Source: a virus. From it: a DNA stretch of 36,355 nucleotides. The position numbers and the translations under genes are program-made. The stretch covers positions 1-36,355 of the IMG/VR virus record IMGVR_UViG_3300021399_000307; one strand, given 5' to 3'. Shown here one piece after another: positions 2,985-36,355 of this stretch. The notes below the pieces were generated by a model. The model had not been told where the DNA came from. It made no database searches and was given only the letters and a program-made list of their open reading frames with translations. How positions within the stretch are numbered: the stretch's first letter is position 1; each line of letters begins with the position of its first letter.

Positions 2985-3034
2985 ATCCTGTTGTGTTAAT
3001 TGTGTCAATTCTGCCGTATTCCCTTATAATGTTG

Positions 3035-3050: not shown

Positions 3051-3061
3051 AGGGGATTAAA

Positions 3062-3086
3062 GGGGGCGGGCGGTATTCCCACCCCC
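3062..3086 (-). terminator. hairpin after ardC
   Basis: gggggcggg / cccaccccc forms a 9-bp stem with one mismatch and a 7-nt loop. It lies 9 nt past the ArdC stop and is followed on the minus strand by TTTAAT. Confidence 0.4.
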
Positions 3087-3094
3087 GGAATCAT

Positions 3095-4009
3095 TTAAGC
3101 GGCCTGTACGGGCTTTTGTCCGAGGATATACCGGGCGGCTTTCTCGGCCCGGCCAGCGGCCCAGACAATCATCTTGGGGTCGTTTTTCAATTCCTTGAGC
3201 CAGCCCTGTATGTAGGCCACCGAATTGCGGAAGGCTTTGGCGGAATCAATCCCGGAGTTTGAGCAGAGCATCGCCGCGCCCATCTCGGCCACAAGTTCCT
3301 CGCGGGAGTACTCGGGGTTGCCGAAGAATGACCGCTTATTGTCAGCCACCCGGTTGCAGCGGGATTTCTTCATCGTGGAGTGGACAAGTTCGTGGAAGGT
3401 CGTGGAGTAGTACTCGGCGGCGATGTCGTACTGCCCCAGCATCGGAACGACCACCTTGTCCTTGGCGGGGGAGTAGTAGGCTTCCACGGATGGCTTGTCA
3501 TTGAAGAATTTGAGGTCGGCTTCGCGGGTCAAGTAGCCGAGGATGGTGGCTTCTGCTTCGGTAATCGGGTCAAGGGTCTTGACTTCCTGCTCCCGGGTCT
3601 TGACTTTCTGCTCCCGGGTCTTGACTTTGGATTCAATCCCTTCCGTCTGATTGATGTGCCATACATTGTAGTAGCGCAGCAGGGGGTAGGATTTGAGTAC
3701 TTCTTCGCCCGTCTCCGGGTCTTTCTCCTTGTACTGGGTCTGCTTGAAGAAAACCACCATCCGGGCCTTCTCGCCCTTCTTGATGTGGCCCTTCCGCTCT
3801 TGGATTTGGTTGAAGGTAAGGTACTCGCCCGGCTCGCCGAGCAGCCACTGATTCAGCACCGAGTACGCCCGGCGTGTGGTGTAGGAAATGGCGCAGTCCT
3901 CGCCGTCGGAGAGGGTGTTGAAGTGCCACGGCTTCTGCCACGGAATGATGCCCTTGTTCAGCATTTCACAGATGCGGTCGGTGACCATTTGATAAACGTT
4001 GTTATTCAT
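3095..4009 (-). CDS. ardC: ArdC-family antirestriction protein (N-terminal ssDNA-binding domain plus HExxH metalloprotease domain)
   Basis: Track ORF of 304 aa. It has IPWQKPW and YNVWHINQTEG (DUF1738-type N-domain) and FHELVHST in the C-terminal zincin domain. Confidence 0.85.
   Translation of the reverse strand: MNNNVYQMVTDRICEMLNKGIIPWQKPWHFNTLSDGEDCAISYTTRRAYSVLNQWLLGEPGEYLTFNQIQERKGHIKKGEKARMVVFFKQTQYKEKDPETGEEVLKSYPLLRYYNVWHINQTEGIESKVKTREQKVKTREQEVKTLDPITEAEATILGYLTREADLKFFNDKPSVEAYYSPAKDKVVVPMLGQYDIAAEYYSTTFHELVHSTMKKSRCNRVADNKRSFFGNPEYSREELVAEMGAAMLCSNSGIDSAKAFRNSVAYIQGWLKELKNDPKMIVWAAGRAEKAARYILGQKPVQAA
3574..3630. repeat. 21-nt tandem repeat, about 2.7 copies, inside ardC
   Basis: gggtcttgactt[c/t]ctgctccc occurs at 3574-3594 and 3595-3615, with a partial copy at 3616-3630. 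It encodes KVKTREQ KVKTREQ EVKT in the inter-domain linker. Confidence 0.9.
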
Positions 4010-4035
4010 AAGGTATGAGTGTTAAGGGTTAATTA
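4007..4035 (-). promoter_or_regulatory. conserved intercistronic element (copy 1 of 4)
   Basis: The minus strand reads TAATTAACCCTTAACACTCATACCTTATG. Near-identical strings precede the ATGs at 11129, 30702 and 31997. Confidence 0.5.
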
Positions 4036-4329
4036 TTAAAATTCTGCAAGTTCCGGGTGGAAGGAATCAAAGGGGACACCGAGGATTTCCAGCATATTCC
4101 AAAGGGCGGTGCGGAGGTGGCGTACATTGTCGGCGTGTTCACGGGCTTTCAGTTCCTCTCCCTGTGCTTGTTTCAGCAAGTTCTCGGCCTGTTCCGGGTG
4201 TTCCTTGCCGACCTCAAAAGCCTTGTTCCAAAGTTGGCGTTCCATCTCGGAGTGGATGTTTTCAAGTTTGATTTCCGCAAGGAGGTTTCCTTTGATTGCG
4301 ATTGCGATGTTTTTGTAATTCGTATCCAT
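4036..4329 (-). CDS. hypothetical protein (97 aa), first gene of the ArdC cassette
   Basis: Track ORF trimmed to MDTNYKNIAIAIK (ATG at 4329). The longer track start would lie inside the promoter. Confidence 0.55.
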   Translation of the reverse strand: MDTNYKNIAIAIKGNLLAEIKLENIHSEMERQLWNKAFEVGKEHPEQAENLLKQAQGEELKAREHADNVRHLRTALWNMLEILGVPFDSFHPELAEF

Positions 4330-4362
4330 TTTGTTTTGTGTTTTGTTGTTTGTTTTCGTATG

Positions 4363-4393
4363 CAAATATATAACCATTTTTTGAATATGCAAA
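4363..4393 (-). promoter_or_regulatory. Bacteroidota-type sigma-A promoter (TTTG-N19-TATATTTG)
   Basis: On the minus strand TATATTTG is at 4370-4363 and TTTG at 4393-4390, with an exact 19-nt spacer. The -7 box ends 33 nt upstream of the ATG at 4329. Confidence 0.65.
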
Positions 4394-4471
4394 ATATTTT
4401 CAGAAAAATCTGCAATTTATTCAAAGTTACTTCGCGGAATACGAAAAATCCTTGAATTATGCAATAGAAAT

Positions 4472-4564
4472 AGCCCGCAACCTCGCGGCTACGGGCTTCC
4501 CCTTTAGGCCCTTCCGGGCCGGCCTTATAACATATTGTAAGGCTGATTAATTGGCTCAGCCTTA
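4472..4564 (-). terminator. terminator region of the late operon (three hairpins)
   Basis: Three hairpins downstream of the 4659 stop: agcccg/cgggct (4472-4497, followed on the minus strand by ATTTCTATT), ggccc-ttcc-gggcc (4507-4520), and taaggctga/tcagcctta with a 9-bp stem (4538-4564). Confidence 0.45.
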
Positions 4565-4658
4565 TGAAGCCTCTGCGCATCTCCTACCGAGGTAGAAGCC
4601 AAATCGAAAAATCTTTTCCAAGTCTGGTTAATCAAAGGTACGAAACTTCTTTGAATAA

Positions 4659-5177
4659 TCAAAGATTCACCCTCAATCCTACGACAATTCCGACACCGGG
4701 GGTCACGTTGTCCATCCCGGGTTGCCAAAAGACACCCGGCCCGGCACTCACGCCCCAGCCTATCCGCTTCCATCTTTGGGGAGAAGGGACGGGGACTTGC
4801 TGTTGGATGGTTATTGTCTTGGGGAAAACTTCGACCCAATCTAAACAGGGTTCAATCCCCGACACTTGGGCCTTGTAATCTTCTCCTTCATAGCCCTTTA
4901 CCTCCCGCTCCATCGCCACATACAGGGTGTCTTTCAAACGGAGGGTATCGGTCACCTTAACCAACTGCACCCGGTCAACATACTTGGTCACAAAAACGGG
5001 CTTTTCAAGGCGGATTGTGTCGCGCCTAATAACTACTACCGAATCGGTCTTTGTGGCCGCAGAAACGAGTTTTAGAGCGTGTTTTCGGCCAAAGACGAAA
5101 CCAAGCGCAGCAAAGGATAACATAGCCACGCCTACCCCAACCCCGAACAGCCACGATGTCACTCTATCGTTATCCAT
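4659..5177 (-). CDS. N-terminally membrane-anchored protein, last gene of the lysis cluster
   Basis: Track ORF trimmed to MDNDRVTSWLFGVGVGVAMLSFAALGFVFG (ATG at 5177). It has one TM helix followed by a beta-rich domain. Confidence 0.55.
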   Translation of the reverse strand: MDNDRVTSWLFGVGVGVAMLSFAALGFVFGRKHALKLVSAATKTDSVVVIRRDTIRLEKPVFVTKYVDRVQLVKVTDTLRLKDTLYVAMEREVKGYEGEDYKAQVSGIEPCLDWVEVFPKTITIQQQVPVPSPQRWKRIGWGVSAGPGVFWQPGMDNVTPGVGIVVGLRVNL

Positions 5178-5635
5178 ATCTCCTCCTTTCTCTGATAGGC
5201 TGGCCAAATGTAAAACCGCATCAAATCCTCCCACGCCAGCACCGAATCGAATATCCGACCCCTCAGACCACTATGCAGCATACCCGGCAAGATGCAACCA
5301 GCAGTGTCCTCCGGGCGATTGCCGGGGTGTATCATTACCCCGCTGAATCCCGGAACATCACACAGGTACGGGAACTTCCCACCATACGGCTTGGCATACC
5401 ACTTGTCCTTGAACTTCGGAGACACCCGCAACTGGATGCGATATGTCCCCTTCGGTATTGCCGTCTTACCCTTAATCTTGATGCGCTCTATCTGAGGTAA
5501 TGCCATCTCTTGGTGCAAACCCCTGTCCTCCGGCTCTAACGACCAGCACAAGAATCCACCCTCATCGGTACGCAGCCGGCCGTGGGTAAACCCCGCCCCG
5601 CTCTCGTAGGGGTTGCGTGTCAGTACTATCCTCAT
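5159..5635 (-). CDS. DUF5675-like protein with an H-x-G-N...G-C motif (possible cell-wall hydrolase)
   Basis: Track ORF of 158 aa. It has GVMIHPGNRPEDTAGCILPG and sits between two membrane proteins. ATGA overlap with the upstream gene. Confidence 0.5.
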   Translation of the reverse strand: MRIVLTRNPYESGAGFTHGRLRTDEGGFLCWSLEPEDRGLHQEMALPQIERIKIKGKTAIPKGTYRIQLRVSPKFKDKWYAKPYGGKFPYLCDVPGFSGVMIHPGNRPEDTAGCILPGMLHSGLRGRIFDSVLAWEDLMRFYIWPAYQRKEEIWITIE

Positions 5636-5928
5636 ACCTTTGCCAGCAAGTTCTTGACCTGCCCCCGCAGCTCGTTAATGTCCTCCGTGTTCCGCTCAAT
5701 CTGCGCCTTCAACTTCTCGTTCTCCAACTTCAAATCCAAGTTCTCGCTCCGCAGTTCATCAATCTTCTTCTCAAGGTCGGCGTTCCGGGTGCGGGTCTCG
5801 TTGTAGAGACTCTGCCATTCCTCGTTGCTGGCCTTCTTGTCCTCTCGGCGTTGCACTCGCCAAGTGGCAAGCCAGCCACCCCCGAAGATGACCGCAAGCG
5901 CGGAAGTAATTATCGTTGTCCAATCCAT
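5632..5928 (-). CDS. TM plus coiled-coil protein (holin/spanin-like)
   Basis: Track ORF of 98 aa. It has an N-terminal TM (TIITSALAVIFGGGWLATW) followed by a heptad-rich LEKKIDELRSENLDLKLENEKLKAQ. Confidence 0.55.
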   Translation of the reverse strand: MDWTTIITSALAVIFGGGWLATWRVQRREDKKASNEEWQSLYNETRTRNADLEKKIDELRSENLDLKLENEKLKAQIERNTEDINELRGQVKNLLAKV

Positions 5929-5978
5929 ATTTTTTGTATCTTTGTGTATCGCATTTTCCCCGGTAGCTCCGGATGGCT

Positions 5979-11313: not shown

Positions 11314-11342
11314 AAGGCGTTGTTTGTTTTTGTTTTCGTATG

Positions 11343-11373
11343 CAAATATACAAACAATAATTGAATATCCAAA
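11343..11373 (-). promoter_or_regulatory. Bacteroidota-type sigma-A promoter (TTTG-N19-TATATTTG), duplicate of the ArdC-cassette promoter
   Basis: The -7 box is at 11350-11343 and TTTG at 11373-11370, with a 19-nt spacer. The 20 nt tgttttcgtatgcaaatata are identical to 4351-4370. Confidence 0.6.
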
Positions 11374-11416
11374 ACTTTTTCAAAAAAATGTGAAGATTTT
11401 TTTCATATAACGGAAA

Positions 11417-11459: not shown

Positions 11460-11972
11460 TTACAGGAGGTCGGAGATGATGGATTCCTCCACCTCGAACG
11501 GGAGTTCCGCGCTCTCGTCAATGAGGGTGACATCGTACCCGTTGCGGTCGGCGCGGGCCGTGCCGGACAGGGCGGCACCAGCGGACAGGCGAAGCGGGGC
11601 ATCCTTGCCGAGATACCAGTACTTGCCGTTCATATCCTCCACGATAGCCACGAGGTCGGCCTGTGCCAGCGCGACAATCGCGGCCCGCTTGGCGGTCTCC
11701 ATTCGGTTGAAGGCCATAACGAGGTCGGTCTGCACGTAGTTGCTTGCGCCCGTGTCGGACACTTGGTAGTTGGAGGAAATCGAACCCGTGTTCGGGCGGA
11801 AGTTATACTCCAGGAACTTCTTGCTGGCGGTCATCGTGATAGCCGTGATGATATTGTCGGTCACGGCCACGGCGGTCACATCGTCGAAGTTGGCGAGAAG
11901 AACCCGCTTAATGCCTCCGAGGTTGGATTCGCAATCTTTCGGGATTGCGGAAAGGACTTGACTACAAGACAT
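11460..11972 (-). CDS. putative major tail/tube protein (170 aa)
   Basis: Track ORF trimmed to MSCSQVLSAIPKD (ATG at 11972). It lies after the capsid gene. The call rests on weak similarity: beta-rich with GTARADRNGYDVTLIDESAELPFEV. Confidence 0.4.
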   Translation of the reverse strand: MSCSQVLSAIPKDCESNLGGIKRVLLANFDDVTAVAVTDNIITAITMTASKKFLEYNFRPNTGSISSNYQVSDTGASNYVQTDLVMAFNRMETAKRAAIVALAQADLVAIVEDMNGKYWYLGKDAPLRLSAGAALSGTARADRNGYDVTLIDESAELPFEVEESIISDLL

Positions 11973-12000
11973 ATCTATTAACTTTTTTGTGTTATCGAAG

Positions 12001-12029
12001 AAAAAGGGACGGGCGTTGCGGCCCGCCCC
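12001..12029 (-). terminator. intrinsic terminator/attenuator directly after the major capsid gene
   Basis: The minus-strand RNA reads GGGGCGGGC-CGCAAC-GCCCGUCCC (one mismatch), followed by UUUUUCUUCG, 24 nt past the capsid stop. Confidence 0.6.
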
Positions 12030-12052
12030 TCTTGGTTTCGGTTTCGGTGTGC

Positions 12053-12964
12053 TTAAGCCGTACCGAGGACGATCTGTGCCGGGAAGTAGTAGGCCACGCC
12101 GGAAGTCCACTTGACCTGCCACTTGAACAGGCGGTCATCCTGCGACCACCACAGGTCAACATCCACCTCGTCACCATCCACATCGGTGAGATAGGTGAGG
12201 TTGTCGGCGAACGTGCCCACGATGGCGTTGCTGCCAGCGAGGCCCGGGGTCCTTGCGATGACCACATCGCTGCCGGGGAACACGAAGGTCTCCGGGGCGG
12301 CATCGTTCGGGCCGGCATAGTGGTAGTAGTTCTTCGCCACCATCGCCTGGAGGAAGGCGCGGTAGTTGGCCGGGGAGATGAAAATCATACCGCCGCGGTC
12401 AAGGGTCTCATCCGGCATCGCCATATAGACATTCTGCACGGACTCATAGATGTCATTGCCAGCGGTGGCGGTGAGGACATCGGTGTCGCCCGCGAACTGC
12501 GCAAGGAAGCCGTTGAGCATGGCCATGTTGCCCTGCCCGCTGGTGGTGTTGCCCTGCCAGATGAGGTTCTCGATGACCTTGTTGACCTCGCGGCCCATCA
12601 CGTCCATCAGGTACGCCTCATACGGAAGGTCGTTCTCGGTGGCGTTGATGCGGACGAGGTACTCGGCGTACTTGCCCAGCAGGGTCTCGGGGCAGAGCTG
12701 GCCGTCGTGTTTGAGTGCCCGGACGGTGACAGTCTTCTGCGAGAGGGTGGCTTCGTCCAGCGGGTTGAAACCGCAGCCGGAGCCGTCCTGCAGGACGAGG
12801 TTGAAGTCGAGGAAGGGAAGGCGCTCGCCGGACTTGATGCCCGTGCGCAGACCGATGCGGCGGCGGGTGTCAGAACCTACCAGCGCAAAGTTCTTGATGA
12901 TGAGGTCACGATTCTCCTTTACATAGGCGGGGAGGGAGGTGACGAGGAAATTGGTAACTGCCAT
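12053..12964 (-). CDS. major capsid protein (HK97-fold type)
   Basis: Track ORF of 303 aa, positioned after the protease-scaffold gene. It has Box A upstream and a terminator downstream, and its composition is typical of capsid proteins. Confidence 0.7.
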   Translation of the reverse strand: MAVTNFLVTSLPAYVKENRDLIIKNFALVGSDTRRRIGLRTGIKSGERLPFLDFNLVLQDGSGCGFNPLDEATLSQKTVTVRALKHDGQLCPETLLGKYAEYLVRINATENDLPYEAYLMDVMGREVNKVIENLIWQGNTTSGQGNMAMLNGFLAQFAGDTDVLTATAGNDIYESVQNVYMAMPDETLDRGGMIFISPANYRAFLQAMVAKNYYHYAGPNDAAPETFVFPGSDVVIARTPGLAGSNAIVGTFADNLTYLTDVDGDEVDVDLWWSQDDRLFKWQVKWTSGVAYYFPAQIVLGTA

Positions 12965-12990
12965 ATCTTTTCAGTTTTTGAGTGATTTCT

Positions 12991-13002
12991 GCCGTGAAAT
13001 AG
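12991..13002 (-). promoter_or_regulatory. Box A copy upstream of the capsid gene
   Basis: The minus strand reads CTATTTCACGGC, 26 nt before the ATG. The start context AAAAGATATG is identical to that of the 10775 gene. Confidence 0.45.
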
Positions 13003-13028
13003 AGTTGTAACACCGAGTGTTAAAAAAC

Positions 13029-14516
13029 CTACTTGCTCATCAGTTCGGCCACGCGGTCAAGGCCCTTTGCCCCGGTCTTGCGGAAGGACTGCTCCTTCAC
13101 TTCTTCGTGGGCGGGCTTGGCGGCGGGCTGGGCTTTCAGTTCGGTCACCTGTGCCCGGAGGGATTCGACCTCGGCTTCGAGGGTAGCGGACTTGGCCTGT
13201 TCCTGCTGGACGGCTTCAACTCCGGCGTTGCGCACCTTTTCGAGGTCGGCTTCAAGGGCGGCGTTCTTTGCCCGGAGGGATTCGACCTCGGATTGTACCT
13301 TTGCGCCGAAGGCGGCGGAATCGTCGAAGTCCATAGGCACGAAAGCCTGCCGGCATTCCACACCCTCGCCGACATTTGCGCTGCCGTCCTCGTTCCAAGT
13401 CACGGCGTAGCGGTAGTACTTGTCGGAGTAGTCCTCGTCGTTCCACACATCGGCGACGGCGAAGTCATCCCCGGCGGAAACGATATACGCGCCCTCGTTG
13501 GGGGAAAGCCCGGCGTTGACGGCTTCGGAAATGCGGCGTGTCTTCTCCTCGTAGGACGCCTCGAACTTCTGCTTACGGGCGAGGTGTTCCGCCCGGCGGG
13601 CTTCCTGCTCCTCGCTGGGTTCGGGCGAAACCTCGGCTTCCGGGTCACGAATCTCCGAGACCTTGCCGTCCACGACCACGATGGTCTTGCCGTCCTCGGT
13701 CTTGTAGTCCCCGTCGGCGGCGGCTTCGAGGGTGTCATCCTCGGTGACGACCTCCACGGAATCACCTTCCTTCAAGTCCTCCTCGCCGGGCCATTCGATG
13801 ATGCCCTTGTCGGTGGTTACACGGCCAAACTTCTGCTCGGCCCTCTGCTCCGCTTCCAGCCGGGTGCGGAGAAGTTCTAAAATGCGTTCAATCTTTGCCA
13901 TAATCGTATTCTTGGTGTCTTTGTTTGCTGCTGAAAATTCCCCGGCCAGCCCGTCCACGATTTCGTCTATGTCCTGCTGGTTGGGTTCGGTGGCGAACCC
14001 GAAAACGCCTTCAAGGGAGAAGCCTTGATAAGTGCCGTCCTTGATTGCGGCCCACACGTCGTCATTGGTAACGTGGAACTCCGCGAACAGGGAGCCGTCC
14101 GCGATGTCGTCGAAGCCCTCGGGATTGATACCCTTTGCGGAATCCTTGATAAAGAACTGCACCATCTCCACGCCGTCTACCTCGTTGCCGTCGTGCATCG
14201 TGTCCACGTTGTTCTGCCGGGATTCGGCAAGGTACTTCTCTGCCATTTCCCGGATGGTGTCAGCCCGGTAGATGATATAATACTCGCCGCCCTTGTTATC
14301 CACTCGATAGATAGGGAAATCGGCCCGCATCACCACGCCCCGGACAAGTCTCTGTTCCTCGTCCTGCACGGCGTACATCTGTATCTTCTTGAAGGTCTGC
14401 CAGCCGGAGAGAACCGCCGGGGCATCCACAAGGGAAATCCGAATCATCCCGCACTCCTCGTCGGAGAGCAGGGCTTCGTATACGGGGATTCCGTCAATAG
14501 TAGAGGTCTTTGCCAT
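13029..14516 (-). CDS. prohead protease (XkdF-like N-domain) fused to a coiled-coil scaffolding domain
   Basis: Track ORF with its ATG at 14516 (the track start is TTG). The N-terminal ~190 aa (VQDEEQRLVRGVVMRADFPIYR, DTMHDGNEV, GFSLEG) resemble XkdF. The C-terminal half is E/A/K coiled coil. Confidence 0.6.
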   Translation of the reverse strand: MAKTSTIDGIPVYEALLSDEECGMIRISLVDAPAVLSGWQTFKKIQMYAVQDEEQRLVRGVVMRADFPIYRVDNKGGEYYIIYRADTIREMAEKYLAESRQNNVDTMHDGNEVDGVEMVQFFIKDSAKGINPEGFDDIADGSLFAEFHVTNDDVWAAIKDGTYQGFSLEGVFGFATEPNQQDIDEIVDGLAGEFSAANKDTKNTIMAKIERILELLRTRLEAEQRAEQKFGRVTTDKGIIEWPGEEDLKEGDSVEVVTEDDTLEAAADGDYKTEDGKTIVVVDGKVSEIRDPEAEVSPEPSEEQEARRAEHLARKQKFEASYEEKTRRISEAVNAGLSPNEGAYIVSAGDDFAVADVWNDEDYSDKYYRYAVTWNEDGSANVGEGVECRQAFVPMDFDDSAAFGAKVQSEVESLRAKNAALEADLEKVRNAGVEAVQQEQAKSATLEAEVESLRAQVTELKAQPAAKPAHEEVKEQSFRKTGAKGLDRVAELMSK

Positions 14517-14525
14517 CAATTCACT

Positions 14526-14592
14526 TTCCGTGAAATAGACAAAGACCCCTTTTTGTTAAAACGCCCCGTTTTTGCCGTCTAAAACTCCGTTT
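14526..14592 (-). promoter_or_regulatory. late upstream region: Box A (14526-14538) and Box B (14578-14592)
   Basis: The string tttgccgtctaaaactc at 14571-14587 is identical to 23078-23094. Box A lies 9 nt from the ATG at 14516. Confidence 0.45.
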
Positions 14593-16516
14593 CTCGCACC
14601 TTAACGCGCTGGGCGGTATTGGCTATTTCAAGGTCGCTATAAACGAGGAATACGCGCTGATTTTGGTACAATCGTTCTTCCTCCCTTTGCCCGGTCACAT
14701 TTCTTACTTGGGCCACATACGGGGAGAAGGCCGGGGCGGGCACGGCTGCGCTGTAGGAATCATTCCCTACCTTGACTGAGTTCATTTGCTTCACCTGTGC
14801 GTACCCGGCTGCGAGGACGGCGGCGGCGTTCATCGGGGCGAGGACTGCCTTGACCGAGAGGGGCAGTTCGGCCGCAGACCAGGTGGAGGTGAAGGCGGAT
14901 ACCGCTCCATTGATAGTAGAAAGGATGGCACTCGCAATCTTGAACCCCTTTGCCTTCTTCGCGGCGGCTTCGTCCGCATCGGCATCGGCTTCGTAGATGT
15001 CGGCAATCGCCCCGGACAAATCGGACAGGGTGGAGGTGTAACCCATAAACGTAGCCAGCCGCTCCCGCTTGATTCTCTTTTCTTCTTCGAGGGCGTTCCA
15101 CTCGGCATCCAACTCCGCTTGCAGGGTTTCCGTCACCACATCCAGTTCGCTCTCGTTCAACTGCTCCAAGAAATCAAAGAATTGTTTGTCATTTTCCTCT
15201 TGCAGCTTCCGGGCATCGGCCAGCAGGGACTCCCGGCGCTTCCGCTCCTTCTCCAAGTCGTCCCAAGTGGCAAGGGTAATCTTCGCCGCTTCGACCTCCT
15301 TCTCTGCCGTCTTTATAGCCGTGGACTGCTGCTCCCGGAGGGTGGTTTCGATTTCCCGGTTCAGCCGTCGGCGGGTCTTGGCAAATTCACTCCGCTTGCG
15401 GATATAGTCGGCTTCGTACTGCGCGAGTTTGTCGTTGACCTCCTTGCTATTCTCGGTCAGTTGGGACTCCTGCAGTGCGAGTTGCCAGCGGCGGTAAGCC
15501 AAGTCCACTTCGTTCTGGAATATCTGTTCTTCCTTCGCGGCGGCATCCCGCAGCATCTTCTCCCGCTCCTTTGCCGTGTGTTCGGTTTTCTTCGCGGCTT
15601 CCGCCCGCAATTCGTCCGCTTCCGCTTGGAGCCGGGCATTGGCCACCATATACTCCCGGTTCAGTTTCGTAATCTCCTGCGATTCGTTCTCCATCTGCAT
15701 CCGGGCATCGGATAACTCCTTGTTGAGAAGTCCCCACTTGATAAGCAGATTTCCTACCCATTCCACCACGCCCGCGATGGCGTTGGCGAAGGCTTGCAGG
15801 GTTCGTTGCGCGGCATCCGCGAGTGGCTTAAAGGCGGCAAGGGCCGTATTGAATCGGTTGGTAGCCCCTTCGCTGGAGGACATCGCCTCCATCACCTTGT
15901 TCAGCACATTCGCCAAAAGCCCCAAGATAGCGATGACCGGGGTAGCAGACAGGGCCTTCAACCCGGAGGTCATATTGGCAATCGGGTTGATAACCGAACC
16001 AGCAGCCCCGGCGGTCTTTTTGAATCCGTCGGATATACCATCAAGCGCGGATTTATAGTTACCCACGTTGCGCCCGAACTTGCCCCGGTCTTCATCAAAC
16101 TGCTTTAAAGCAGAATTAATGGACTGTATTTGCTCCCCGAGGTCTTTGCGCTTGGTGGCATCCTCCGTGGCCCGGAACTCTTGGTCAAGTTCGGCCATCT
16201 TCTTGACCAGCCCGTTGTAGGAGTAGTTCATATCCTTAACGAGCTTATTCTGCGAATCAAAGACAATATTCGCACCCTTCGCCGCGCGGACGACTTCCTC
16301 CATCGAAGCGGAAGTCCCGTACATCGCATTCTTCAGCGCGGCTTGGTTGGCCTGTAAATCGGAGAGAGTGCTCTTATATTTCTCCGAACCGATTTCAAGT
16401 TCAGCAAGTTGGTCCTTATACGCCTTGATATTATCTTTCAGTTCGGCGATATTTTTGACCGCATCCCGAGTGCCGTCATCGTTGACTTGTACCCGGAGAA
16501 TAGTTACATCTTCCAT
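14579..16516 (-). CDS. tape-measure-like / internal coiled-coil virion protein
   Basis: Track ORF of 645 aa. It has long heptad-rich helices plus hydrophobic segments (PVIAILGLLANVL, AVLAPMNAAAVLAAGYA). Confidence 0.55.
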   Translation of the reverse strand: MEDVTILRVQVNDDGTRDAVKNIAELKDNIKAYKDQLAELEIGSEKYKSTLSDLQANQAALKNAMYGTSASMEEVVRAAKGANIVFDSQNKLVKDMNYSYNGLVKKMAELDQEFRATEDATKRKDLGEQIQSINSALKQFDEDRGKFGRNVGNYKSALDGISDGFKKTAGAAGSVINPIANMTSGLKALSATPVIAILGLLANVLNKVMEAMSSSEGATNRFNTALAAFKPLADAAQRTLQAFANAIAGVVEWVGNLLIKWGLLNKELSDARMQMENESQEITKLNREYMVANARLQAEADELRAEAAKKTEHTAKEREKMLRDAAAKEEQIFQNEVDLAYRRWQLALQESQLTENSKEVNDKLAQYEADYIRKRSEFAKTRRRLNREIETTLREQQSTAIKTAEKEVEAAKITLATWDDLEKERKRRESLLADARKLQEENDKQFFDFLEQLNESELDVVTETLQAELDAEWNALEEEKRIKRERLATFMGYTSTLSDLSGAIADIYEADADADEAAAKKAKGFKIASAILSTINGAVSAFTSTWSAAELPLSVKAVLAPMNAAAVLAAGYAQVKQMNSVKVGNDSYSAAVPAPAFSPYVAQVRNVTGQREEERLYQNQRVFLVYSDLEIANTAQRVKVRETEF

Positions 16517-19140
16517 CAGTATTGATTCTTGTAGTTAGCAATGTCACGAACCTGTACGAACTCGCACTCCGCAGGGTCGAAGGTGGTCAGCGAGTAGTTG
16601 GAGATTTTATTGAGCATCCAAAGGCTTCCCCGATACCAGTAGAACTTCCGCAATGCTTCCGGGCCGGGGCGGTCAATCCACGCCTTGCAGGTCATCACCT
16701 TCCCGTGAACGTTCAGCCTGTCCCGGATATACTGCTGCCACGCCTGTTCATAGATGTTATAACCCGCCGCGTATCGGATGCCCGGAATATCCACCTCCCG
16801 CGGGAATCCGAAGTCCAGCAGCAACTCCGGGTCTTGCCCCCGGTGGGTGTACCTTGTGAATTGGGGAATATCCAACCCGTACTCGTTGAAGGCCGCAATC
16901 CAGCACGGCCCGCCGTTCACGGCATCCATCACCGGGAGGTCATCGGACAATCCGAAGTGCGGGTAGTTCAAAGAGTAGTTGAAGAACAGAAGCACATCTG
17001 CCCCGTCTATCCCCTTGTTCTCGCCGTCCCGGAACTCGGCCCGGCTCACAAGGTCATACCCCGGATAAGTGGTGTTCAGCGGGTCAAGGCTCGCCCCGGC
17101 GGGAAGGACAATATCGGTGTCCAGATTCTCGCTTCCGTTCCATAGGGTATAAGTCCCGCCGTCAATGAACGGGGACGGATAGAAGTCGTTATTATCCAAG
17201 ATGGAGTACCAATACTTGCCCCGGTCTTGCACCGCTGCGCATGATTTCAGCACCAATCCCGCGAGAAGGTCTTTGACTTCCGCGTCGAAATCATAGCCCG
17301 TGTCCACTCGCTGGATGCCGTACTGCACCCCCTCGGTATTGAGGTATTCTTCCTCGAATCTCCCCCCGACACTCTCCGTCTTGAACTCGTACCATTTGGA
17401 ATCGAAGGCCACGGGATTGATAACCACAGAATCGGCATCTATCCTGTCCGTCAAGTCCTCGGTTTCATTCACGAAGAAGGATTTGCGTTTGAGGATGGTG
17501 ACTTGCTTGGTGGCACTATCCGCGAGGATATACAACCCGAAGGACTTACACAGGGCAAGGAGGTATTCTGCCGGAGTTCCGGAGGTCGAAAGGAGCATCC
17601 GCTTGGTGATATACGCGCCGCTCCGCAGGGTTTCGGTCGAAGTGCTGGTGGCGGTACAACTGCCCTCCGTTGCCGCCCAAGCATCGGGGTTGTAGGCATT
17701 CGCGGAATCATACCACAGGATAGTCCCGGAGCCGGTTCCGCCCGCGAACGAATAGACACCGCCACCCAAGAGAATATAGGCGCGGTATGCCGTGACCTCA
17801 ATGTCAATCCGCGCAATGTTCACCCCGGTTATCTCGCACTCCAAATCCCGCTGCCGGACATAGTAGCCATTATCCAGCGAGTAGGAATGGTCAACATCTG
17901 CAGAAGCGAAGCCCGCATTCCCTTTCGGGATGAACCCAAAGGCGCTTGCAAGGGTTTCGGCATCGGCCACATTCGCGCTCTTGTAGTACGCCTTGACCGG
18001 GCCAGCGGCTACCTGTGTGTTATCGCTTGCATATCCTACCGCTTGCACGAACAGGACTTGCTGCTCAATCCCGGCTGGGACATACGACTGCGCCCGCTTC
18101 TCATCCCAAGACCGCAGGGGCGTTCTCGGCGATGCCCCCGGCACAGAATAACGCAGATTGCACCTGACCCGGGCAGTCACTTCCGCTCCGCTGGGGACAT
18201 TCGCCAGCGCAAAACGCCCGATAACGTTCCCGGAGGAATACTGCACGAAAGTCCCCGTGATGGATTCCGTCATTTGCTTATAAGTCCCCAAACTCGGCAG
18301 CAAAGGCCGGGTTATCCAAGTGTCAAGATATGGCACATCGGAGAGGTCGGAGAGGTCAACACTCCACCCGCCGTTATTATTCCCGTCCGCGATGGCGTCC
18401 AGCAGTTTCCGAACCGAGAGGACGGGCCGCTGGAGGTAGGAACGGAGGTCTTTCGCCGCCCATTCGTCCACATTATCGGGATAATTAATCAAGCATACCC
18501 CGTTGTTGGTGGTATAGGTCTTGCCGTCTTTGGTTATTGAACTCTGCAGCCCAAAAACACTTGGTTCTGCCACGGCCTTATCAGCGGAGAAGTTCTCCGG
18601 GATTCCGTTATAGCAGGGCGCGAAGTTGATAACGTCCCACTTCTCCGGCTTGCTGGCATCTCCCTCCAATCGCGCCCACGCATCTGCGACGGCTTCCTTG
18701 TTGATAACGAAGTCCAAGTCCACGCCGTAGTCCAAGTCCGCAAGTGTCATCTTCTCCCCGGACGGGGTGAAAGACAGATTGTAGATGAAATCCCCAAGCC
18801 CCCCGAACAGGGACACGGAGTAGGTGTCTTTCGTGACAGAGTTGAGTTTCAGATAACCCGCGTAGATTATTTCCCCGGAATCGGCATAGAGGGCAAAGGA
18901 GGTTCTTTGTGATGCGTTGAACTGCGCACCCGTGCCGCCACCCCCGGCCAGCCGGTCGGCGCGGAAGGAGTGCCCGAATATCCTGTCATTCGCTGGGGTC
19001 GCGGGGAGGTCTATATCCTGCGTCCAAGAGTTCTTCAAGACCGCCGGATTGGTGAGGTCAGTAATGGCGTAGTTCAAGAGAACGAACCCGTCCTCCGTCA
19101 TATCCGCCTTCTGACCTCCGATGTAAAGTGTCAATCTCAT
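16516..19140 (-). CDS. large tail-associated structural protein (874 aa)
   Basis: Track ORF. It is beta-rich, sits between other tail genes and overlaps the upstream stop (ATGA). No catalytic motif was recognised. Confidence 0.5.
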   Translation of the reverse strand: MRLTLYIGGQKADMTEDGFVLLNYAITDLTNPAVLKNSWTQDIDLPATPANDRIFGHSFRADRLAGGGGTGAQFNASQRTSFALYADSGEIIYAGYLKLNSVTKDTYSVSLFGGLGDFIYNLSFTPSGEKMTLADLDYGVDLDFVINKEAVADAWARLEGDASKPEKWDVINFAPCYNGIPENFSADKAVAEPSVFGLQSSITKDGKTYTTNNGVCLINYPDNVDEWAAKDLRSYLQRPVLSVRKLLDAIADGNNNGGWSVDLSDLSDVPYLDTWITRPLLPSLGTYKQMTESITGTFVQYSSGNVIGRFALANVPSGAEVTARVRCNLRYSVPGASPRTPLRSWDEKRAQSYVPAGIEQQVLFVQAVGYASDNTQVAAGPVKAYYKSANVADAETLASAFGFIPKGNAGFASADVDHSYSLDNGYYVRQRDLECEITGVNIARIDIEVTAYRAYILLGGGVYSFAGGTGSGTILWYDSANAYNPDAWAATEGSCTATSTSTETLRSGAYITKRMLLSTSGTPAEYLLALCKSFGLYILADSATKQVTILKRKSFFVNETEDLTDRIDADSVVINPVAFDSKWYEFKTESVGGRFEEEYLNTEGVQYGIQRVDTGYDFDAEVKDLLAGLVLKSCAAVQDRGKYWYSILDNNDFYPSPFIDGGTYTLWNGSENLDTDIVLPAGASLDPLNTTYPGYDLVSRAEFRDGENKGIDGADVLLFFNYSLNYPHFGLSDDLPVMDAVNGGPCWIAAFNEYGLDIPQFTRYTHRGQDPELLLDFGFPREVDIPGIRYAAGYNIYEQAWQQYIRDRLNVHGKVMTCKAWIDRPGPEALRKFYWYRGSLWMLNKISNYSLTTFDPAECEFVQVRDIANYKNQY

Positions 19141-21468: not shown

Positions 21469-22663
21469 ACGTTCTTTGTCTTGATGCAAAACCGATGGTA
21501 TAGTTCCCGGTGTTTTTCCCGGCGAACTGCGTGTAGAGGGCGTACCTCAAAGCATCCGGGCCGTGTGACCATTCGTGTATCGGATAGTCGGTAAGGTTCC
21601 CGTCCTTGTCCTTCTCGAAGCAGTAGTTTCGGAGGTCTTTGATGAGGTCAAGGGAATCCTTCGTGACAAATAATTTCCAGCCCTGCATCCACTGGATTTG
21701 AAACTTCCGCTTGTCACTTCTAACAGGGGCAGATTTGTCGCAGGGCCTTATCTTCAACCCGGTGGCATCGCCGATTTCCTTGATGCTCTTGGGGTCTTCG
21801 CAGTCGGCCCAGATATTCACATACCTCCCCGGCGGGTCGGATACCAACTTGGCCGTGATATGCTCGTTCTTCATCGCCCGCTCGTAGCACTTCTGTTGGA
21901 CATAGGCAACTTTCCGTCCGGGGTCGGCCAGCACCTTGACAATCGCCGTAGGGTCTTGAAAGCCGAAGTCCATTCCCCATACCTCCGTCAAGTCCTCATT
22001 CTCCGGGAGTTTGTCAATGAGTTGGAAGTCGGGGTAGATAAGGCCCTCCAAAGAACCCACAAGCCCCAAACCATACACCCGCCACCAATTCGCGTCCCCT
22101 TGATTGGCTTCGATTTCCCGCACCTGCTCCGGGGAGAGAAAGGAATTGTCCTTGTAGGTGGAGTGAATCGTGACGCACTCCTGCCGGGATTCTATTTGCT
22201 CCTGCACCCAGCCTTCGTGTGTAGGGTTGTAGTCCATCAGCACCAGCCCACGGGTACGGACAAATAACTGCCGGGCGATTTCCCACGGGATATTCTGTAC
22301 CTCATTGAGGAAAAGCCTGTCACGGGCCGGGCCGTGCACCTTCGCCGGGGCATCTGCCGAGAAGAACTCAATCCGGCTTCCGTTCCGCAGGGTGTAGATG
22401 CTCTCTCCCTTGCTCCAGCAGTCCTCGTCCCATAAGTCACCCAGCACCTCCCGGAAATCACGAATCGCGCCACGTTTGAGGTGCGGGAAGGTCTCGGACA
22501 CTACACTCGTTATCGTGGGCCGGGTATCGGACAGGGCCAACTTGAAAATGAACTGCAAGGCGGCGAAGGTCTTACCACTTCGCGTGCCGCCGCAGGACGA
22601 AACAAACCGCTCCGTCCTGCCGACTGCATCCACCAGCCTGTCATATACCGGGGTCGTGGTCAT
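21449..22663 (-). CDS. terL: terminase large subunit
   Basis: Track ORF. It has a Walker A motif (GGTRSGKT) and nuclease-half strings (WGMDFGFQDPTA, HGPDALRYA). The ATG at 22663 overlaps the TerS stop (ATGA); the track start is GTG. Confidence 0.9.
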   Translation of the reverse strand: MTTTPVYDRLVDAVGRTERFVSSCGGTRSGKTFAALQFIFKLALSDTRPTITSVVSETFPHLKRGAIRDFREVLGDLWDEDCWSKGESIYTLRNGSRIEFFSADAPAKVHGPARDRLFLNEVQNIPWEIARQLFVRTRGLVLMDYNPTHEGWVQEQIESRQECVTIHSTYKDNSFLSPEQVREIEANQGDANWWRVYGLGLVGSLEGLIYPDFQLIDKLPENEDLTEVWGMDFGFQDPTAIVKVLADPGRKVAYVQQKCYERAMKNEHITAKLVSDPPGRYVNIWADCEDPKSIKEIGDATGLKIRPCDKSAPVRSDKRKFQIQWMQGWKLFVTKDSLDLIKDLRNYCFEKDKDGNLTDYPIHEWSHGPDALRYALYTQFAGKNTGNYTIGFASRQRTYDTLHR

Positions 22664-23058
22664 TCGCCTTTCTTCCACTTATTGAAGGCTTCCTGCTCCT
22701 CCTTCGATACCAGCACCGGGACTTCCTTCGTGAACCCGATTTCGGACACCTGCTTCGGCTTCCCGAACAAGCGGTCAAGGATGTCACTTGTGTAGATGCC
22801 CGCCGTCTTACCCATCATCCCCTTCGCGTACACCTGAATCAAGTAACCGAACTCCGGGAGTTCCTCGGCGGTCTTGTTCAGGTACTCCGCTGCCGTCTTT
22901 TGGTCGGGCAGGGTCAACGCGTGGTACAGGGCCGCGTACACCTTCTCCCGGGCATCGGGCGGGATGGACTTTAACTTGGGCTTCCTGCCCGCCCCGGCTG
23001 GCTGATTCGTGGCCGAAAAGCGGTTGCCAATCTTGTTCCCTTTTTCAAATCGTCCCAT
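22660..23058 (-). CDS. putative terminase small subunit (DUF5681-like N-terminus)
   Basis: Track ORF of 132 aa. It has KGNKIGNRFSATNQPAGAGRKP at the N-terminus and lies directly upstream of and coupled to terL. Confidence 0.5.
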   Translation of the reverse strand: MGRFEKGNKIGNRFSATNQPAGAGRKPKLKSIPPDAREKVYAALYHALTLPDQKTAAEYLNKTAEELPEFGYLIQVYAKGMMGKTAGIYTSDILDRLFGKPKQVSEIGFTKEVPVLVSKEEQEAFNKWKKGE

Positions 23059-23077
23059 CGTAGAAAAATCGTTGATA

Positions 23078-23099
23078 TTTGCCGTCTAAAACTCGATTT
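23078..23099 (-). promoter_or_regulatory. Box B copy upstream of the packaging genes
   Basis: The minus strand reads AAATCGAGTTTTAGACGGCAAA, 20 nt upstream of the ATG at 23058. Confidence 0.4.
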
Positions 23100-23107
23100 A
23101 CCGGGCC

Positions 23108-23487
23108 TTAAACCTTTTCCTTAATAAGTTCCCGGGCGGGCTGCAAAAACTCGTTCCTGGCGCTTATTTCCTCCTTAAAGATGCCCGTCAATTTACAGGT
23201 GCTCATCTTGCCCGGCTTTCTTGCTCCGCGCATTGTCTTGCAAAGGTGTTCCCCTTCCATTAGCAGGGCGATTCCAAGCGGCGGGTTTTCCGTACCCAGC
23301 ACCCCGGCGATGTCCTCCACGATGTCAGACACCAGCCGCTCTTGAATTTGCAGTTTGGCGGCATGATAGTCCACTACCCGGCCAATCTTGGATAGGCCGA
23401 GAATCTTTCCGTTCTCCCCTGCGAGATAAATTTCCTTTCATCGAATACATAGGGCCGGGAACTTGTCCCGGCGAGATAGAGATTCAT
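23108..23487 (-). pseudogene. folE: N-terminally truncated, frame-disrupted GTP cyclohydrolase I (FolE) fragment
   Basis: YLAGENGKILGLSKIGRVVDYHAAKLQIQERLVSDI...EGEHLCKTMRGARKPG...GIFKEE..R.EFL aligns with the C-terminal ~105 aa of FolE. The CEHH zinc motif is absent. The ATG at 23487 (ATGA with the ParB stop) is in another frame, 50 nt out of register. Confidence 0.7.
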
Positions 23488-24059
23488 ACCACCTTGCACC
23501 CGGGCCAATCCTGCAAGGTTACTTCGAGGGCTGCAGAAATATCGCCCAACTTATCCTCATAGGCGGCGGGAATTTCGACCACGACCTTGATGGGCTTGGG
23601 CTTCCCCTCTCCGGCCTCCTCAAATAGGGCATCCAGCGCACCGGGGTCTTCCGGCTGGCCCGTTATCCACTCCGGAACGCCCCATTCGGCAAGATGCCCG
23701 TTATCCCATTCGTTGGCGAGCTGGTCAATATCCCACGCCCCGAAAGAGCCGTTATCCTTGATTACGATTTCCTTCATTTTCTCCACGGGGGTGTTCTCCG
23801 GGAACAGGATTACCGGGGCTTCCTTGTCCTTATTCTTTCGCGCCCCTTCGTAGCGGAGGTTCCCGCCGAGTATAACCTTCTGCCCTTGATACATCACGGC
23901 GATGATAGGCCGGGCTTCAAAGAGTTCCGGGGTTTCTTTGAGGGATTTGGCTATCTTGTCCACATCGCCCTTCGTCCATTGGCGGGGGTTGGACGGCAAG
24001 CCGGGAATCTGCCCGGTGTTCGGGGTGAGTTCCGAGAGTTTGAGTTTGAGAATCTGCAT
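23484..24059 (-). CDS. ParB-like nuclease domain protein
   Basis: Track ORF of 191 aa. It has LPSNPRQWTKGDVDKIAKSL...PIIAV...VILGGNLRYEGA (ParB/Srx N-domain pattern). Confidence 0.65.
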   Translation of the reverse strand: MQILKLKLSELTPNTGQIPGLPSNPRQWTKGDVDKIAKSLKETPELFEARPIIAVMYQGQKVILGGNLRYEGARKNKDKEAPVILFPENTPVEKMKEIVIKDNGSFGAWDIDQLANEWDNGHLAEWGVPEWITGQPEDPGALDALFEEAGEGKPKPIKVVVEIPAAYEDKLGDISAALEVTLQDWPGCKVV

Positions 24060-26012: not shown

Positions 26013-27326
26013 TTAAATAGACTTTCCCTGCATCTTGTCAACTTCCTGCTGGTAGTGCTTGATAAGGAGTTGCAGTTCAAACGCGCTCCACTTCTTTGTC
26101 ATCCGTCCCCTTGCTAATAGCATATCCACGCGGTCTTTCCCGATTTTGGCTTCGAGGTTGCGCTGGTAGGCGATAATGTGGTCAGCGGAAAAGCGGTTGC
26201 AGTTGTGCATCATATACCCGTTTGCGATAAAAGTGTGGGTGCTGGTTTCCATTACCACAATCTCCTGTATTCCGGCGGGCGTAATTGATTTAACCTTCGT
26301 GTCGTACTTCGAGCGAATATCTCCAAGTTTATCTATGTCCAGTTTCTTTAATTTATGCGGGCGCAGTTTCATAAGAAATTGCACCTTTTCGATATTCGAC
26401 CCGGTTATAAGGAATTGCCACGTCTGTACCTTTGAATTTATCGCTCCGTTTCTCGGCTTTTCCATCCATTGGCGGCAGGGTTTATGATTTCCCGTAAAGC
26501 GTTCCATCCATTTCACGATGTCAGCGCAAATCTCCGGGTAGGTTTCGCTTTGAGCAATCCCAATACGAAGGCCATAGCGGATTGAACCGTCCGGGCCGTG
26601 GATATTCTGCTGGCAGAGGTGACCATCGGCATCAATCATTCCGGCAAGCCATCCGGCTTCGTAGGACTTCTCCTGCTGGTAGACCATTATCGGCTTACAT
26701 ACCATCGTGGTAGTTTTCTCGGTATGCGGCCCGGTCTTTTTCTTGCCGTGGAGGTTATACCCGTTTATCCACATTTCCTGCGTTTCCACCCAGCGCGTAC
26801 CACATCTTGACCGAACGAGCCATTTATGCTCGGCGGTGGTTTTGATATGGTCTCCGTTTTCAAGTTCTACATCATATACAGGGCTGGTGGCGCGATGTAT
26901 ATGGGTCACGATGCTTTTCTTCCAATGGCGGCGTTCTCCGTTCCGCCCGTGGCTTTCCTCGGTGAATCCAAACAACTCATCGCCTTCCTTTACATCCCCG
27001 AGAGGAATCCAGCGAAGGTCAGCGGTTAAGATAAGGGCATCCGGGGTAAGGCAAAACCTGCACTCCCCGTGTGCGTTTTCCTCATCGAACCGGGTGGCTT
27101 GGTGCGTCCGGGAAATGAAGTGCCCGCAGTCCATTTGCTCAAAGGGTTTGATTTGCCCGCAGGAGATACAACGGAAGTACTGGTAGTTGTACGCAGCCGA
27201 ATCCCGAAGCCGGATAAAAAGGGAGAAAACCTTATCCAATTTCCGCACAAGGGCGGCGGTACTGGGTTTCCTTTCCTTGATACCCGACTTCGGGGTTTTC
27301 GGTTTGCGCTTGATATAGTAGGGCAT
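26013..27326 (-). CDS. ninG: NinG/Rap-like recombination protein interrupted by an intein (437-aa precursor, 153-aa extein)
   Basis: KLDKVFSLFIRLRD, CISCG, DCGHFISR and RFDEENAHGECRF, then the insert, then CNRFSADHIIAYQRNLEAKIG. The ATG at 27326 overlaps the upstream stop (TAATG); the track start is further upstream. Confidence 0.8.
   Translation of the reverse strand: MPYYIKRKPKTPKSGIKERKPSTAALVRKLDKVFSLFIRLRDSAAYNYQYFRCISCGQIKPFEQMDCGHFISRTHQATRFDEENAHGECRFCLTPDALILTADLRWIPLGDVKEGDELFGFTEESHGRNGERRHWKKSIVTHIHRATSPVYDVELENGDHIKTTAEHKWLVRSRCGTRWVETQEMWINGYNLHGKKKTGPHTEKTTTMVCKPIMVYQQEKSYEAGWLAGMIDADGHLCQQNIHGPDGSIRYGLRIGIAQSETYPEICADIVKWMERFTGNHKPCRQWMEKPRNGAINSKVQTWQFLITGSNIEKVQFLMKLRPHKLKKLDIDKLGDIRSKYDTKVKSITPAGIQEIVVMETSTHTFIANGYMMHNCNRFSADHIIAYQRNLEAKIGKDRVDMLLARGRMTKKWSAFELQLLIKHYQQEVDKMQGKSI
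26202..27053 (-). mobile_element. class-1 intein with LAGLIDADG homing-endonuclease domain (284 aa)
   Basis: It begins CLTPDALILTADL, has IKTTAEH and GWLAGMIDADGHL, and ends THTFIANGYMMHN followed by Cys+1. The insert is in frame and no stop interrupts it. Confidence 0.8.
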
Positions 27327-27592
27327 TATTCCTCGTTCTCTGCCGTCTGCTTTTCGTTTTCCGAGGCTTGTTCGGCAATCGGGAATAGTTTCTCCATCAT
27401 CAGGTCTGCGGCCTTCATAGACCATTCTACGGCCTGTTCCGCGGTCATCCCGAGGTTGGGGTTGTGTACCAGCCCGAACAGGATGGAGGTTGCGTACTGC
27501 TCCCGCTTTTGGGAGAGGAAACGGAGGATTTGGTTTTTCTTTTCCTCCGGGGTGAGGGGCTTCGGCCCGCTCGGCTTCATAGATTTGTTCAT
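27326..27592 (-). CDS. hypothetical protein (88 aa)
   Basis: Track ORF with an acidic C-terminus, coupled to ninG. Confidence 0.5.
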   Translation of the reverse strand: MNKSMKPSGPKPLTPEEKKNQILRFLSQKREQYATSILFGLVHNPNLGMTAEQAVEWSMKAADLMMEKLFPIAEQASENEKQTAENEE

Positions 27593-36069: not shown

Positions 36070-36355
36070 TTTCTTGCATAGGCCATATTTTCGGGATGAG
36101 TAACTACTTCCTTCTTCCCATCTTCAAACGCTTCGTTTATGTTTTTGAATTCTGATTGAAGTTCGCTCCACTCTGCGGGCTTCTGCTCTTTCTGCTTATT
36201 ACAGCTATAAAGTTCAATTTTCTTAAAATCATCCCAAGTTAGTTTTGCATATCTCTTTCCATTTTCAACCTTAGCGTGAGATGCAAATTGGACTTGGATT
36301 GCTGAAAGCAAATGTTCATTATCAAGAACTTGATGATTTGCTCCAAGATGGTATC
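36018..36355 (-). CDS. modular accessory protein, 3' part in the frame continuous with 94..839 (5' end runs off the right edge)
   Basis: Track ORF 36018..36311, and the frame is open to 36355. The offset of 36135 nt to the left copy is divisible by 3, so the frame matches 1..839. Confidence 0.6.
   Translation of the reverse strand, partial: YHLGANHQVLDNEHLLSAIQVQFASHAKVENGKRYAKLTWDDFKKIELYSCNKQKEQKPAEWSELQSEFKNINEAFEDGKKEVVTHPENMAYARKQSGARRMRTNWSSVSK
36229..36355. repeat. 127-nt exact copy of 94..220 (circular closure overlap)
   Basis: See feature 94..220. Confidence 0.95.

Follow-up and report, generated by a model that had tools for sequence, protein, structure and literature searches.

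Inteins of the best-described type, such as PI-SceI/VMA1, PI-PfuI and TliVMA, contain a Hint fold in which an endonuclease is nested between the two splicing halves, carry the residues Cys1, T-x-x-H, His-Asn and Cys+1, and are inserted at a catalytic motif of a protein of DNA metabolism. In our study, the same anatomy was found in a viral DNA stretch of 36,355 nucleotides (IMG/VR record IMGVR_UViG_3300021399_000307, positions 1 to 36,355; "the window" hereafter means this whole stretch), where the gene encoding the NinG/Rap recombination nuclease is interrupted by an intein of 284 residues. The element is a standard class-1 LAGLIDADG intein in its mechanism and anatomy; its host gene, NinG/Rap, and its phage clade are new. 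In our reading, a class-1 intein with a homing endonuclease has very probably invaded ninG/rap in a Bacteroidales phage that is temperate and lambdoid in style. PI-SceI, PI-PfuI and TliVMA contain two LAGLIDADG motifs in a pseudo-dimeric region of ~200 residues, act as monomers and often possess an extra DNA-recognition region, whereas the NinG intein, with its 284 residues, contains one half-domain of ~120 residues.

The NinG intein belongs to the same family as the compact phage inteins of the C1-cluster mycobacteriophages (Cali gp243 and Trinitium gp258), a Ralstonia phage TerL and an IMG/VR PolB. These inteins were 25–40% identical to the NinG intein from end to end, were of equal size (~260–290 residues) and had a single W(L/I)(A/G)G..D(A/G)(D/E)G domain in common with it; the NinG intein differs from them in its host gene, NinG/Rap, and in its host clade, the Bacteroidales phages. 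Scattered presence and absence and local spread have been described in two actinophage intein surveys (PMC5050341; 10.1101/2025.01.02.630785), and the population behaviour of the NinG intein resembles that of the inteins described there. NinG was not named in the main text of the intein surveys PMC5050341, 10.1101/2025.01.02.630785 and PMC4760082 (the last on prokaryotic inteins), nor in that of a gut-phage study dealing with inteins (PMC7886860). No paper on NinG as an intein host was found in the literature searched. These searches agree with an initial annotation of the window, made from the sequence alone, which knew of no intein in NinG; absence from the literature searched does not prove novelty. 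The list of intein hosts gains NinG/Rap, a recombination nuclease of the His-Me-finger type, and phage intein biology, well documented in the actinophages, is extended to temperate phages of Bacteroidales from the human gut and mouth.

The interrupted NinG protein and its intein-free alleles

The ninG::intein precursor gene was found at 26013..27326 (-) as an open reading frame of 437 codons followed by a stop codon. The initial annotation had described it as a NinG-type protein with a series of motifs, and the translation was exact for every one of them. The start of the 437-residue protein at MPYY was supported by the homologues and by the gene call in a sister phage. An alternative, longer reading frame was observed from an upstream ATG at 27425 (27327-27425, (-)), which would give 470 residues and overlap the preceding gene of 88 residues; this longer form finds no support in the homologues, which, like the sister phage, start at MPYY.

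The N-extein, residues 1–91 (27054..27326, (-)), was delimited by its Pfam NinG and phrog_5034 matches and by alignment with lambda NinG, and contained the NinG N-terminal helix, the first CxxC (C53 and C56), the catalytic DCGH69, N84, and C89 of the second knuckle. The C-extein, residues 376–437 and the stop codon (26013..26201, (-)), was delimited by identity with the empty allele and by the same lambda NinG alignment. Its first residue, Cys+1 (26199-26201), supplies the second Cys of the CxxC knuckle, and N377 and H383, which belong to the His-Me finger, come after it; C376 and N377 were invariant in an alignment of 50 alleles. In the precursor, the Pfam NinG (PF05766) match falls in two separated stretches. 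When residues 92–375 were removed, the match became contiguous, with 76.2 bits (cutoff 25.4) and an E-value of 4e-21, and the match to phrog_5034 (NinG/Rap DNA junction specific endonuclease) moved from 6e-37 with the insert to 8e-43 without it. Agreement of this kind is far outside what chance would produce. Lambda NinG aligned with the spliced extein at an E-value of 1e-15, with NIHKQCVVCNQ lying over NAHGECRFCNR, which bears out the earlier placement of the insertion at the equivalent of Q-C-V-V-C-N in lambda.

The host protein was thus found to score over the gathering threshold of the family hidden Markov model and to contain the CxxC, GH, N and CxxCN motifs of a His-Me finger with a treble clef. 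NinG/Rap has been classed as a His-Me-finger nuclease, for which a full treble-clef zinc site is predicted (PMC5714182). In the comparison with lambda NinG/Rap (PF05766; His-Me finger group 24), the CxxC, GH, N, CxxCN and H/N motifs could be aligned, and the window gene, like that of lambda, is located between replication genes and late genes. Unlike lambda NinG, to which it is 28% identical, the window extein is devoid of the ~80-residue N-terminal region and is interrupted by the intein. By its sequence, the spliced extein of 153 residues is predicted to be a Rap-type junction nuclease.

The intein comprises 284 codons, residues 92–375, at 26202..27053 (-), an assignment based on an exact indel relative to the empty allele of the sister genome L001, on TIGR01445 and on the Hint fold. 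The insert of 852 nucleotides lies in frame, directly before the second Cys of the second C-x-x-C knuckle, for which reason Cys+1 is presumed to be a zinc ligand. A search with the predicted spliced product gave a NinG protein of 153 residues that was 100% identical to it (P0121), followed by about 20 intein-free entries at 92–99% identity. P0121 is encoded on L001, a contig of 36.5 kb from the same phage lineage as the window, with 94–98% nucleotide identity over most of the genome. The alignment between L001 and the window ends at window position 27051 and restarts at 26201, and the empty site of L001, GAGTGCAGGTTT/TGCAACCGC (the slash marking the insertion point), corresponds to the window gene minus the 852 nucleotides. 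The boundaries of the insert proposed at the outset were therefore exact. Five differences were found between the exteins of the window and L001, all of them synonymous, and none was located in the 189-nucleotide C-extein. The insertion is accordingly precise and in frame in a conserved host protein, and the intein-free alleles have the sequence of the ligated exteins.

It is hardly credible that the 284 residues form a permanent accessory domain which is never excised, whether Hint/BIL-like or DNA-binding, or that they arose as an assembly chimera. Neither the splicing nucleophiles nor the terminal His-Asn vary among the 50 alleles, the insert interrupts a CxxC zinc knuckle within the catalytic His-Me finger, and the intein-free alleles are exact at both the protein and the DNA level. 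Homologues with the same 284 residues as a conserved, non-excised domain had been named in advance as an outcome that would speak against an intein; the homologues instead included intein-free alleles with up to 100% extein identity. A chimera is further opposed by more than 110 independent alleles, which come from many samples, from IMG/VR and from a cultured strain.

Splicing domain and predicted splicing

The N-terminal splicing (Hint) region covers residues 92–213 (26688..27053, (-)) and was recognised by its invariant residues, by sequence matches to DnaE mini-inteins and by a beta-rich AlphaFold2 model. It contains Cys1 (C92; 27051-27053, (-)) and the block B motif T164-x-x-H167 (26826-26837, (-)). 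The C-terminal splicing region, residues 337–375 (26202..26318, (-)), contains invariant E360, T361, H374 and N375, where His374-Asn375 form the end of the intein (26202-26207, (-)). C92, T164, H167, H374, N375 and C376 were invariant across the 50 alleles, which are of 43–74% identity, and the C-terminal region was the best-conserved segment, with a mean pairwise identity of 72%.

A Hint-domain search, which had been proposed with the initial annotation, gave TIGR01445 (intein_Nterm) at 35.9 bits against a cutoff of 24.5. In an intein-containing radical-SAM model, the intein part was matched at 5e-16, and DnaE inteins were found by profile search. The AlphaFold2 model of the precursor had a mean predicted local distance difference test (pLDDT) score of 86.6. 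Its best Foldseek matches in the PDB were TliVMA, PI-SceI and PI-PfuI, with E-values of 1e-8 to 1e-7; mini-inteins were covered at template-modelling (TM) scores of 0.75–0.81, and the top 50 matches were all inteins or Hint domains. On the basis of all canonical splicing residues and the modelled Hint fold, the insert is an intein, as the initial annotation had claimed, and one of class 1; splicing itself is predicted. Class 3 was rejected due to the presence of Cys1 and the lack of a WCT triplet, and a non-splicing BIL/Hint domain was considered and likewise rejected.

According to the proposed mechanism, the 437-residue precursor would be translated with its nuclease active site split. Cys92 (Cys1) would undergo an N-S acyl shift and Cys376 (+1) would attack the resulting thioester, after which Asn375 would cyclise with the assistance of His374 and release the intein. 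An S-N shift would then yield the native E-C-R-F-C-N peptide, by which the four-Cys zinc site and the active nuclease of 153 residues would be restored.

The position of the junction raises the question of whether the intein has taken on a second role as a conditional switch, in which zinc or redox state at the junction would delay splicing and time the Rap activity during infection. Such a role is compatible with an invading intein, and we consider it very unlikely. In the precursor, Cys1 stands exactly where the fourth zinc ligand would be (C89-x-x-C92), the junction geometry of C89, C92 and C376 is invariant in the 50 alleles, and Hint-C is the best-conserved segment; all three would fit a switch, as would the full treble-clef zinc site predicted for NinG (PMC5714182) and the reversible inhibition by zinc of splicing in other inteins (PMC7360933). 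However, intein-free alleles are abundant and interleaved with the intein-bearing ones, which indicates that NinG can function without the intein; selfish inteins generally insert at conserved catalytic motifs; and the residues at -1 and -2 vary freely. The use of a presumed zinc-ligand Cys as the +1 nucleophile, with Cys1 mimicking a ligand in the precursor, is one of the testable peculiarities of this intein, the other being its compact single-domain endonuclease.

Endonuclease domain

A single LAGLIDADG homing-endonuclease half-domain was found at residues 214–336 (26319..26687, (-)), based on its fold, on a family profile and on Pfam matches of its relatives. The LAGLIDADG helix corresponds to the motif GWLAGMIDADG (26622-26654, (-)). 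In the models, the chain contained one half-domain and not two, with residues 222–328 forming one alpha-beta-beta-alpha-beta-beta-alpha-alpha unit; the single clear motif noted in the initial annotation is thus a true structural feature. When the endonuclease domain was used alone as a profile, it matched I-CvuI (8.5e-6), I-MsoI and I-CreI. A separate model of the domain had a pLDDT score of 89.9 and its best fold matches were I-CvuI, I-Vdi141I, I-CreI, I-MsoI and I-CeuI, with TM scores of 0.5–0.6 (normalised to the query) against these homodimeric single-motif enzymes. All of the top 50 Foldseek matches were LAGLIDADG enzymes, and monomeric two-motif enzymes such as I-OnuI were covered over half of their length only. 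The LAGLIDADG profile search suggested at the outset was successful in part: LAGLIDADG_3 was found in 28/32 family members and LAGLIDADG_1 in 20/32, whereas the endonuclease domain of the window itself gave no Pfam LAGLIDADG match at E <= 1, so that it was assigned by way of the family profile and the fold.

The GWLAGMIDADG core was at least 90% conserved in the 50 alleles, and both Asp residues of DADG, Q239/Q240, R254, Q259 and K314 were invariant in an alignment of 32 endonuclease domains. In the comparison with L004, the closest intein-bearing allele, the exteins contained 22 synonymous and 1 nonsynonymous codon differences and the intein 29 and 17, respectively; in the endonuclease domain alone, 18 were synonymous and 9 nonsynonymous. 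These counts indicate purifying selection on the endonuclease domain, which appears to be constrained more weakly than the extein but truly so.

I-CreI, I-CvuI, I-MsoI, I-Vdi141I and I-CeuI are free-standing, intron-encoded enzymes of ~150–170 residues with pseudo-palindromic sites. The NinG domain has one LAGLIDADG helix, an alpha-beta-beta-alpha-beta-beta-alpha core and a metal-binding Asp in common with them, but it is shorter, forms part of an intein and has a target without detectable symmetry, and the TM scores to these enzymes are moderate. A lone LAGLIDADG half-domain makes no double-strand break by itself. To judge from the models, the NinG domain is probably a half-domain of the I-CreI/I-CvuI type that must pair with a second copy in order to cut both DNA strands. 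After splicing, the freed intein of 284 residues (or the precursor) would most probably associate with another copy by way of the LAGLIDADG helix, in the manner of I-CreI and I-CvuI, and the pair would cut at or near GAGTGCAGGTTT/TGCAACCGC in the intein-free ninG of a phage or prophage sharing the same cell. Repair by recombination, aided by the Erf/Sak-type annealing protein of the phage itself, would then copy the intein into the cut gene.

Fitzsimons Hall et al. (J Mol Biol 2002) are said to have grafted a homodimeric single-motif enzyme into a mini-intein and to have reported the product as bifunctional, a precedent for splicing and cutting by a protein of this architecture. An engineered I-CreI/mini-intein chimera is cited in PMC3943268. 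The NinG intein would be the natural counterpart of such a chimera. For natural inteins, the literature searched gave no paper that deals with LAGLIDADG domains of a single motif. A further proposal combines two ideas, namely that the NinG intein is a natural "half-site" endonuclease, in which two inteins or precursors act on an asymmetric target, and that its splicing and the Rap activity are gated by zinc or redox state; we regard this combination as unlikely. If it were true, the textbook view of intein LAGLIDADG enzymes as two-motif monomers would be revised, and very small self-splicing meganuclease scaffolds would be at hand. Unless the dimeric-endonuclease or the zinc-gating idea is true, the understanding of inteins is unchanged.

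An exhaustive search with the intein alone gave 2,616 representative clusters, and many of the best 150 of these aligned from end to end over ~255–290 residues. The nearest non-NinG hosts among the matches listed were PolA, DnaE, PolB, helicases, RNase H-like exonucleases, portal, ERF and UDG, and related inteins were also present in TerL hosts. Judging by this search, the single-domain architecture appears to be common to hundreds of compact phage inteins; inteins of this compact type are widespread, with NinG as a further host. Matches of Mycobacterium phage Trinitium and of Ralstonia phages in a tblastn search were considered as NinG-like hosts and rejected, because their translated exteins were unrelated (VWA-like and TerL, respectively) and the overlap with the N-extein was spurious. 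In another IMG/VR contig (L075, UViG_3300047160_019164), a family-B DNA polymerase of 1,280 residues at 2116-5958 contained a related intein, 37% identical (CLTPDHKVL...ADGYPMHN, followed by C), with the same single LAGLIDADG-like domain and a Cys-rich stretch (CPGCGEKHEHSARECMRRY) directly before the intein.

Alleles, mobility and genome context

More than 110 intein-bearing NinG alleles of 42–96% identity were found in the protein collection, with inteins mostly of 282–290 residues; they came from metagenomes, from IMG/VR, where 64 contigs contained full-length alleles, and from a prophage of Hoylesella shahii. One cluster at 90% identity contained 3,209 member sequences, for which "hypothetical protein" was the sole name from any source. 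Members of 323 residues in this cluster were considered as recent endonuclease deletions and rejected, since they were unrelated proteins. In public data, the alleles thus carry either no name or that of "hypothetical protein", and the split Pfam matches can mislead annotation. The prophage of Hoylesella (Prevotella) shahii DSM 15611 (L008 5956-7269, NZ_BAIZ01000025.1) encodes an intact, intein-bearing NinG of 437 residues with all splicing residues, and a second prophage copy was found in a metagenome-assembled genome of Bacteroidaceae. A megablast search of the locus against GenBank phages gave no match, and only a protein search gave a relative, MT840030. The NinG intein is not rare, with its more than 110 alleles, the 3,209-member cluster and a copy in a cultured type strain, and the latter provides a tractable system.

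We classified 241 sequences, among which 113 were intein-bearing and 115 intein-free. The two kinds of alleles interleave in extein space, and in seven lineages an intein-bearing extein was at least 97% identical to an intein-free one. The histories of intein and host were incongruent in both directions. The inteins of P0095/P0102 were 97.5% identical with exteins of 52% identity, and those of P0059/P0066 were 98.6% identical with exteins of 62% identity; conversely, P0037/P0046, P0104/P0110 and P0095/P0108 had exteins 96–99% identical and inteins only 57–60% identical. Five independent in-frame deletions were found within the endonuclease domain (P0060, P0080, P0091/P0101, P0105 and P0114). 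Their endpoints differ, and they leave mini-inteins of 179–239 residues in which the blocks of both splicing halves are intact. The allele series therefore spans the homing cycle, with the empty site, the full intein, the five endonuclease deletions and near-identical inteins in diverged hosts. By sequence comparison, this pattern indicates what is expected from a cycle of invasion, fixation, endonuclease decay and loss, and the NinG intein is apparently still mobile.

Several observations weigh against the reading of an invading, homing intein. In the splicing region, Pfam Intein_splicing scored 30 bits, below the cutoff of 35.8, and intein_Cterm (TIGR01443) scored 11–14 bits, below the cutoff of 15.6. 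The contrast in composition is small, with a GC content of 49.5% in the intein and 51.3% in the extein. To the missing Pfam LAGLIDADG match of the window copy is added the empty site, in which no two-fold symmetry beyond chance was found, the best score of 6/11 being the modal best score in shuffled sequences; this is unexpected, because the enzyme would be homodimeric. The window extein groups with intein-free alleles and shares only site -38 with L004. No clear co-conversion tract was seen among one intein-bearing and three intein-free close alleles, and the extein comparison fits gain in the window lineage as well as loss in its relatives.

Part of this would be explained if splicing were genuine and the endonuclease of this copy inactive or a nickase, the intein persisting by vertical descent and ordinary phage recombination. 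We take this to be possible, if unlikely. It would be in keeping with the single half-domain, the target without dyad symmetry, the absence of a visible co-conversion signature and the window copy that alone lacks a Pfam LAGLIDADG match. The deletions show that the domain is dispensable, and the intein-bearing allele is a minority in its lineage, where ~22 near-identical intein-free entries stand against P0001 and the window. On the other hand, the LAGLIDADG core and the putative active-site residues show little or no variation, the synonymous to nonsynonymous ratio of 18:9 indicates constraint, and, short of site-specific invasion, it is difficult to account for near-identical inteins in hosts of only 52% identity. 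Homodimers of the I-CreI family are also known to cut pseudo-palindromic sites which are imperfectly symmetric. Invasion by an intein with a homing endonuclease remains our preferred reading.

Between the L004 allele (75-1388) and the window N-extein (27054-27326), three synonymous changes were observed at -9, -6 and -5 from the insertion (GAG TGC AGG to GAA TGT CGG), so the presumed homing site varies between intein-bearing lineages. The gene calls of P0115 (246 residues, on a contig of 467 kb), P0118 and P0120 start within the intein (MWVNGVNLHGK...). The location of P0115 on a long bacterial contig may point to a disrupted or decaying prophage copy rather than to truncation at a contig end.

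The window was found to encode an integrase, an Erf/Sak-type annealing protein, an O-like replication initiator, NinG, a sigma-like regulator and a ParB-like nuclease, as well as the large terminase, portal and protease. It is a temperate, lambdoid-style Bacteroidales phage of a clade from the human gut and mouth. A direct repeat of 140 nucleotides, 99% identical, was present at window 81-220 and 36216-36355, the latter at the very end, with a spacing of 36,135 nucleotides. The terminal repeat implies that the window holds a complete genome, either circular or with terminal redundancy, of ~36.1 kb, read slightly past one unit, and the sister genome L001 matches across the window ends. A variable module lies between the nin region and the packaging genes, where the window contains 2.6 kb (21493-24053) and L001 ~5.3 kb (11890-17214). 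The ~5.3-kb stretch of L001 gave no megablast match to the 2.6 kb of the window at the equivalent position, and includes PAPS-reductase/DUF3440 and glycosyltransferase genes. An AT-rich repeat of 73 nucleotides, 81% identical, was found at 4349-4421 and 11329-11401 in apparently intergenic positions (TTTGTTTTCGTATGCAAATATA...); the two copies may represent a promoter of the Bacteroidetes type or a regulatory element. A DNA methyltransferase gene at 1518-2726 (-) lies near a gene for an "anti-restriction protein" (phrog_7245) at 3095-4009 (-), and this neighbourhood suggests an anti-defence module.

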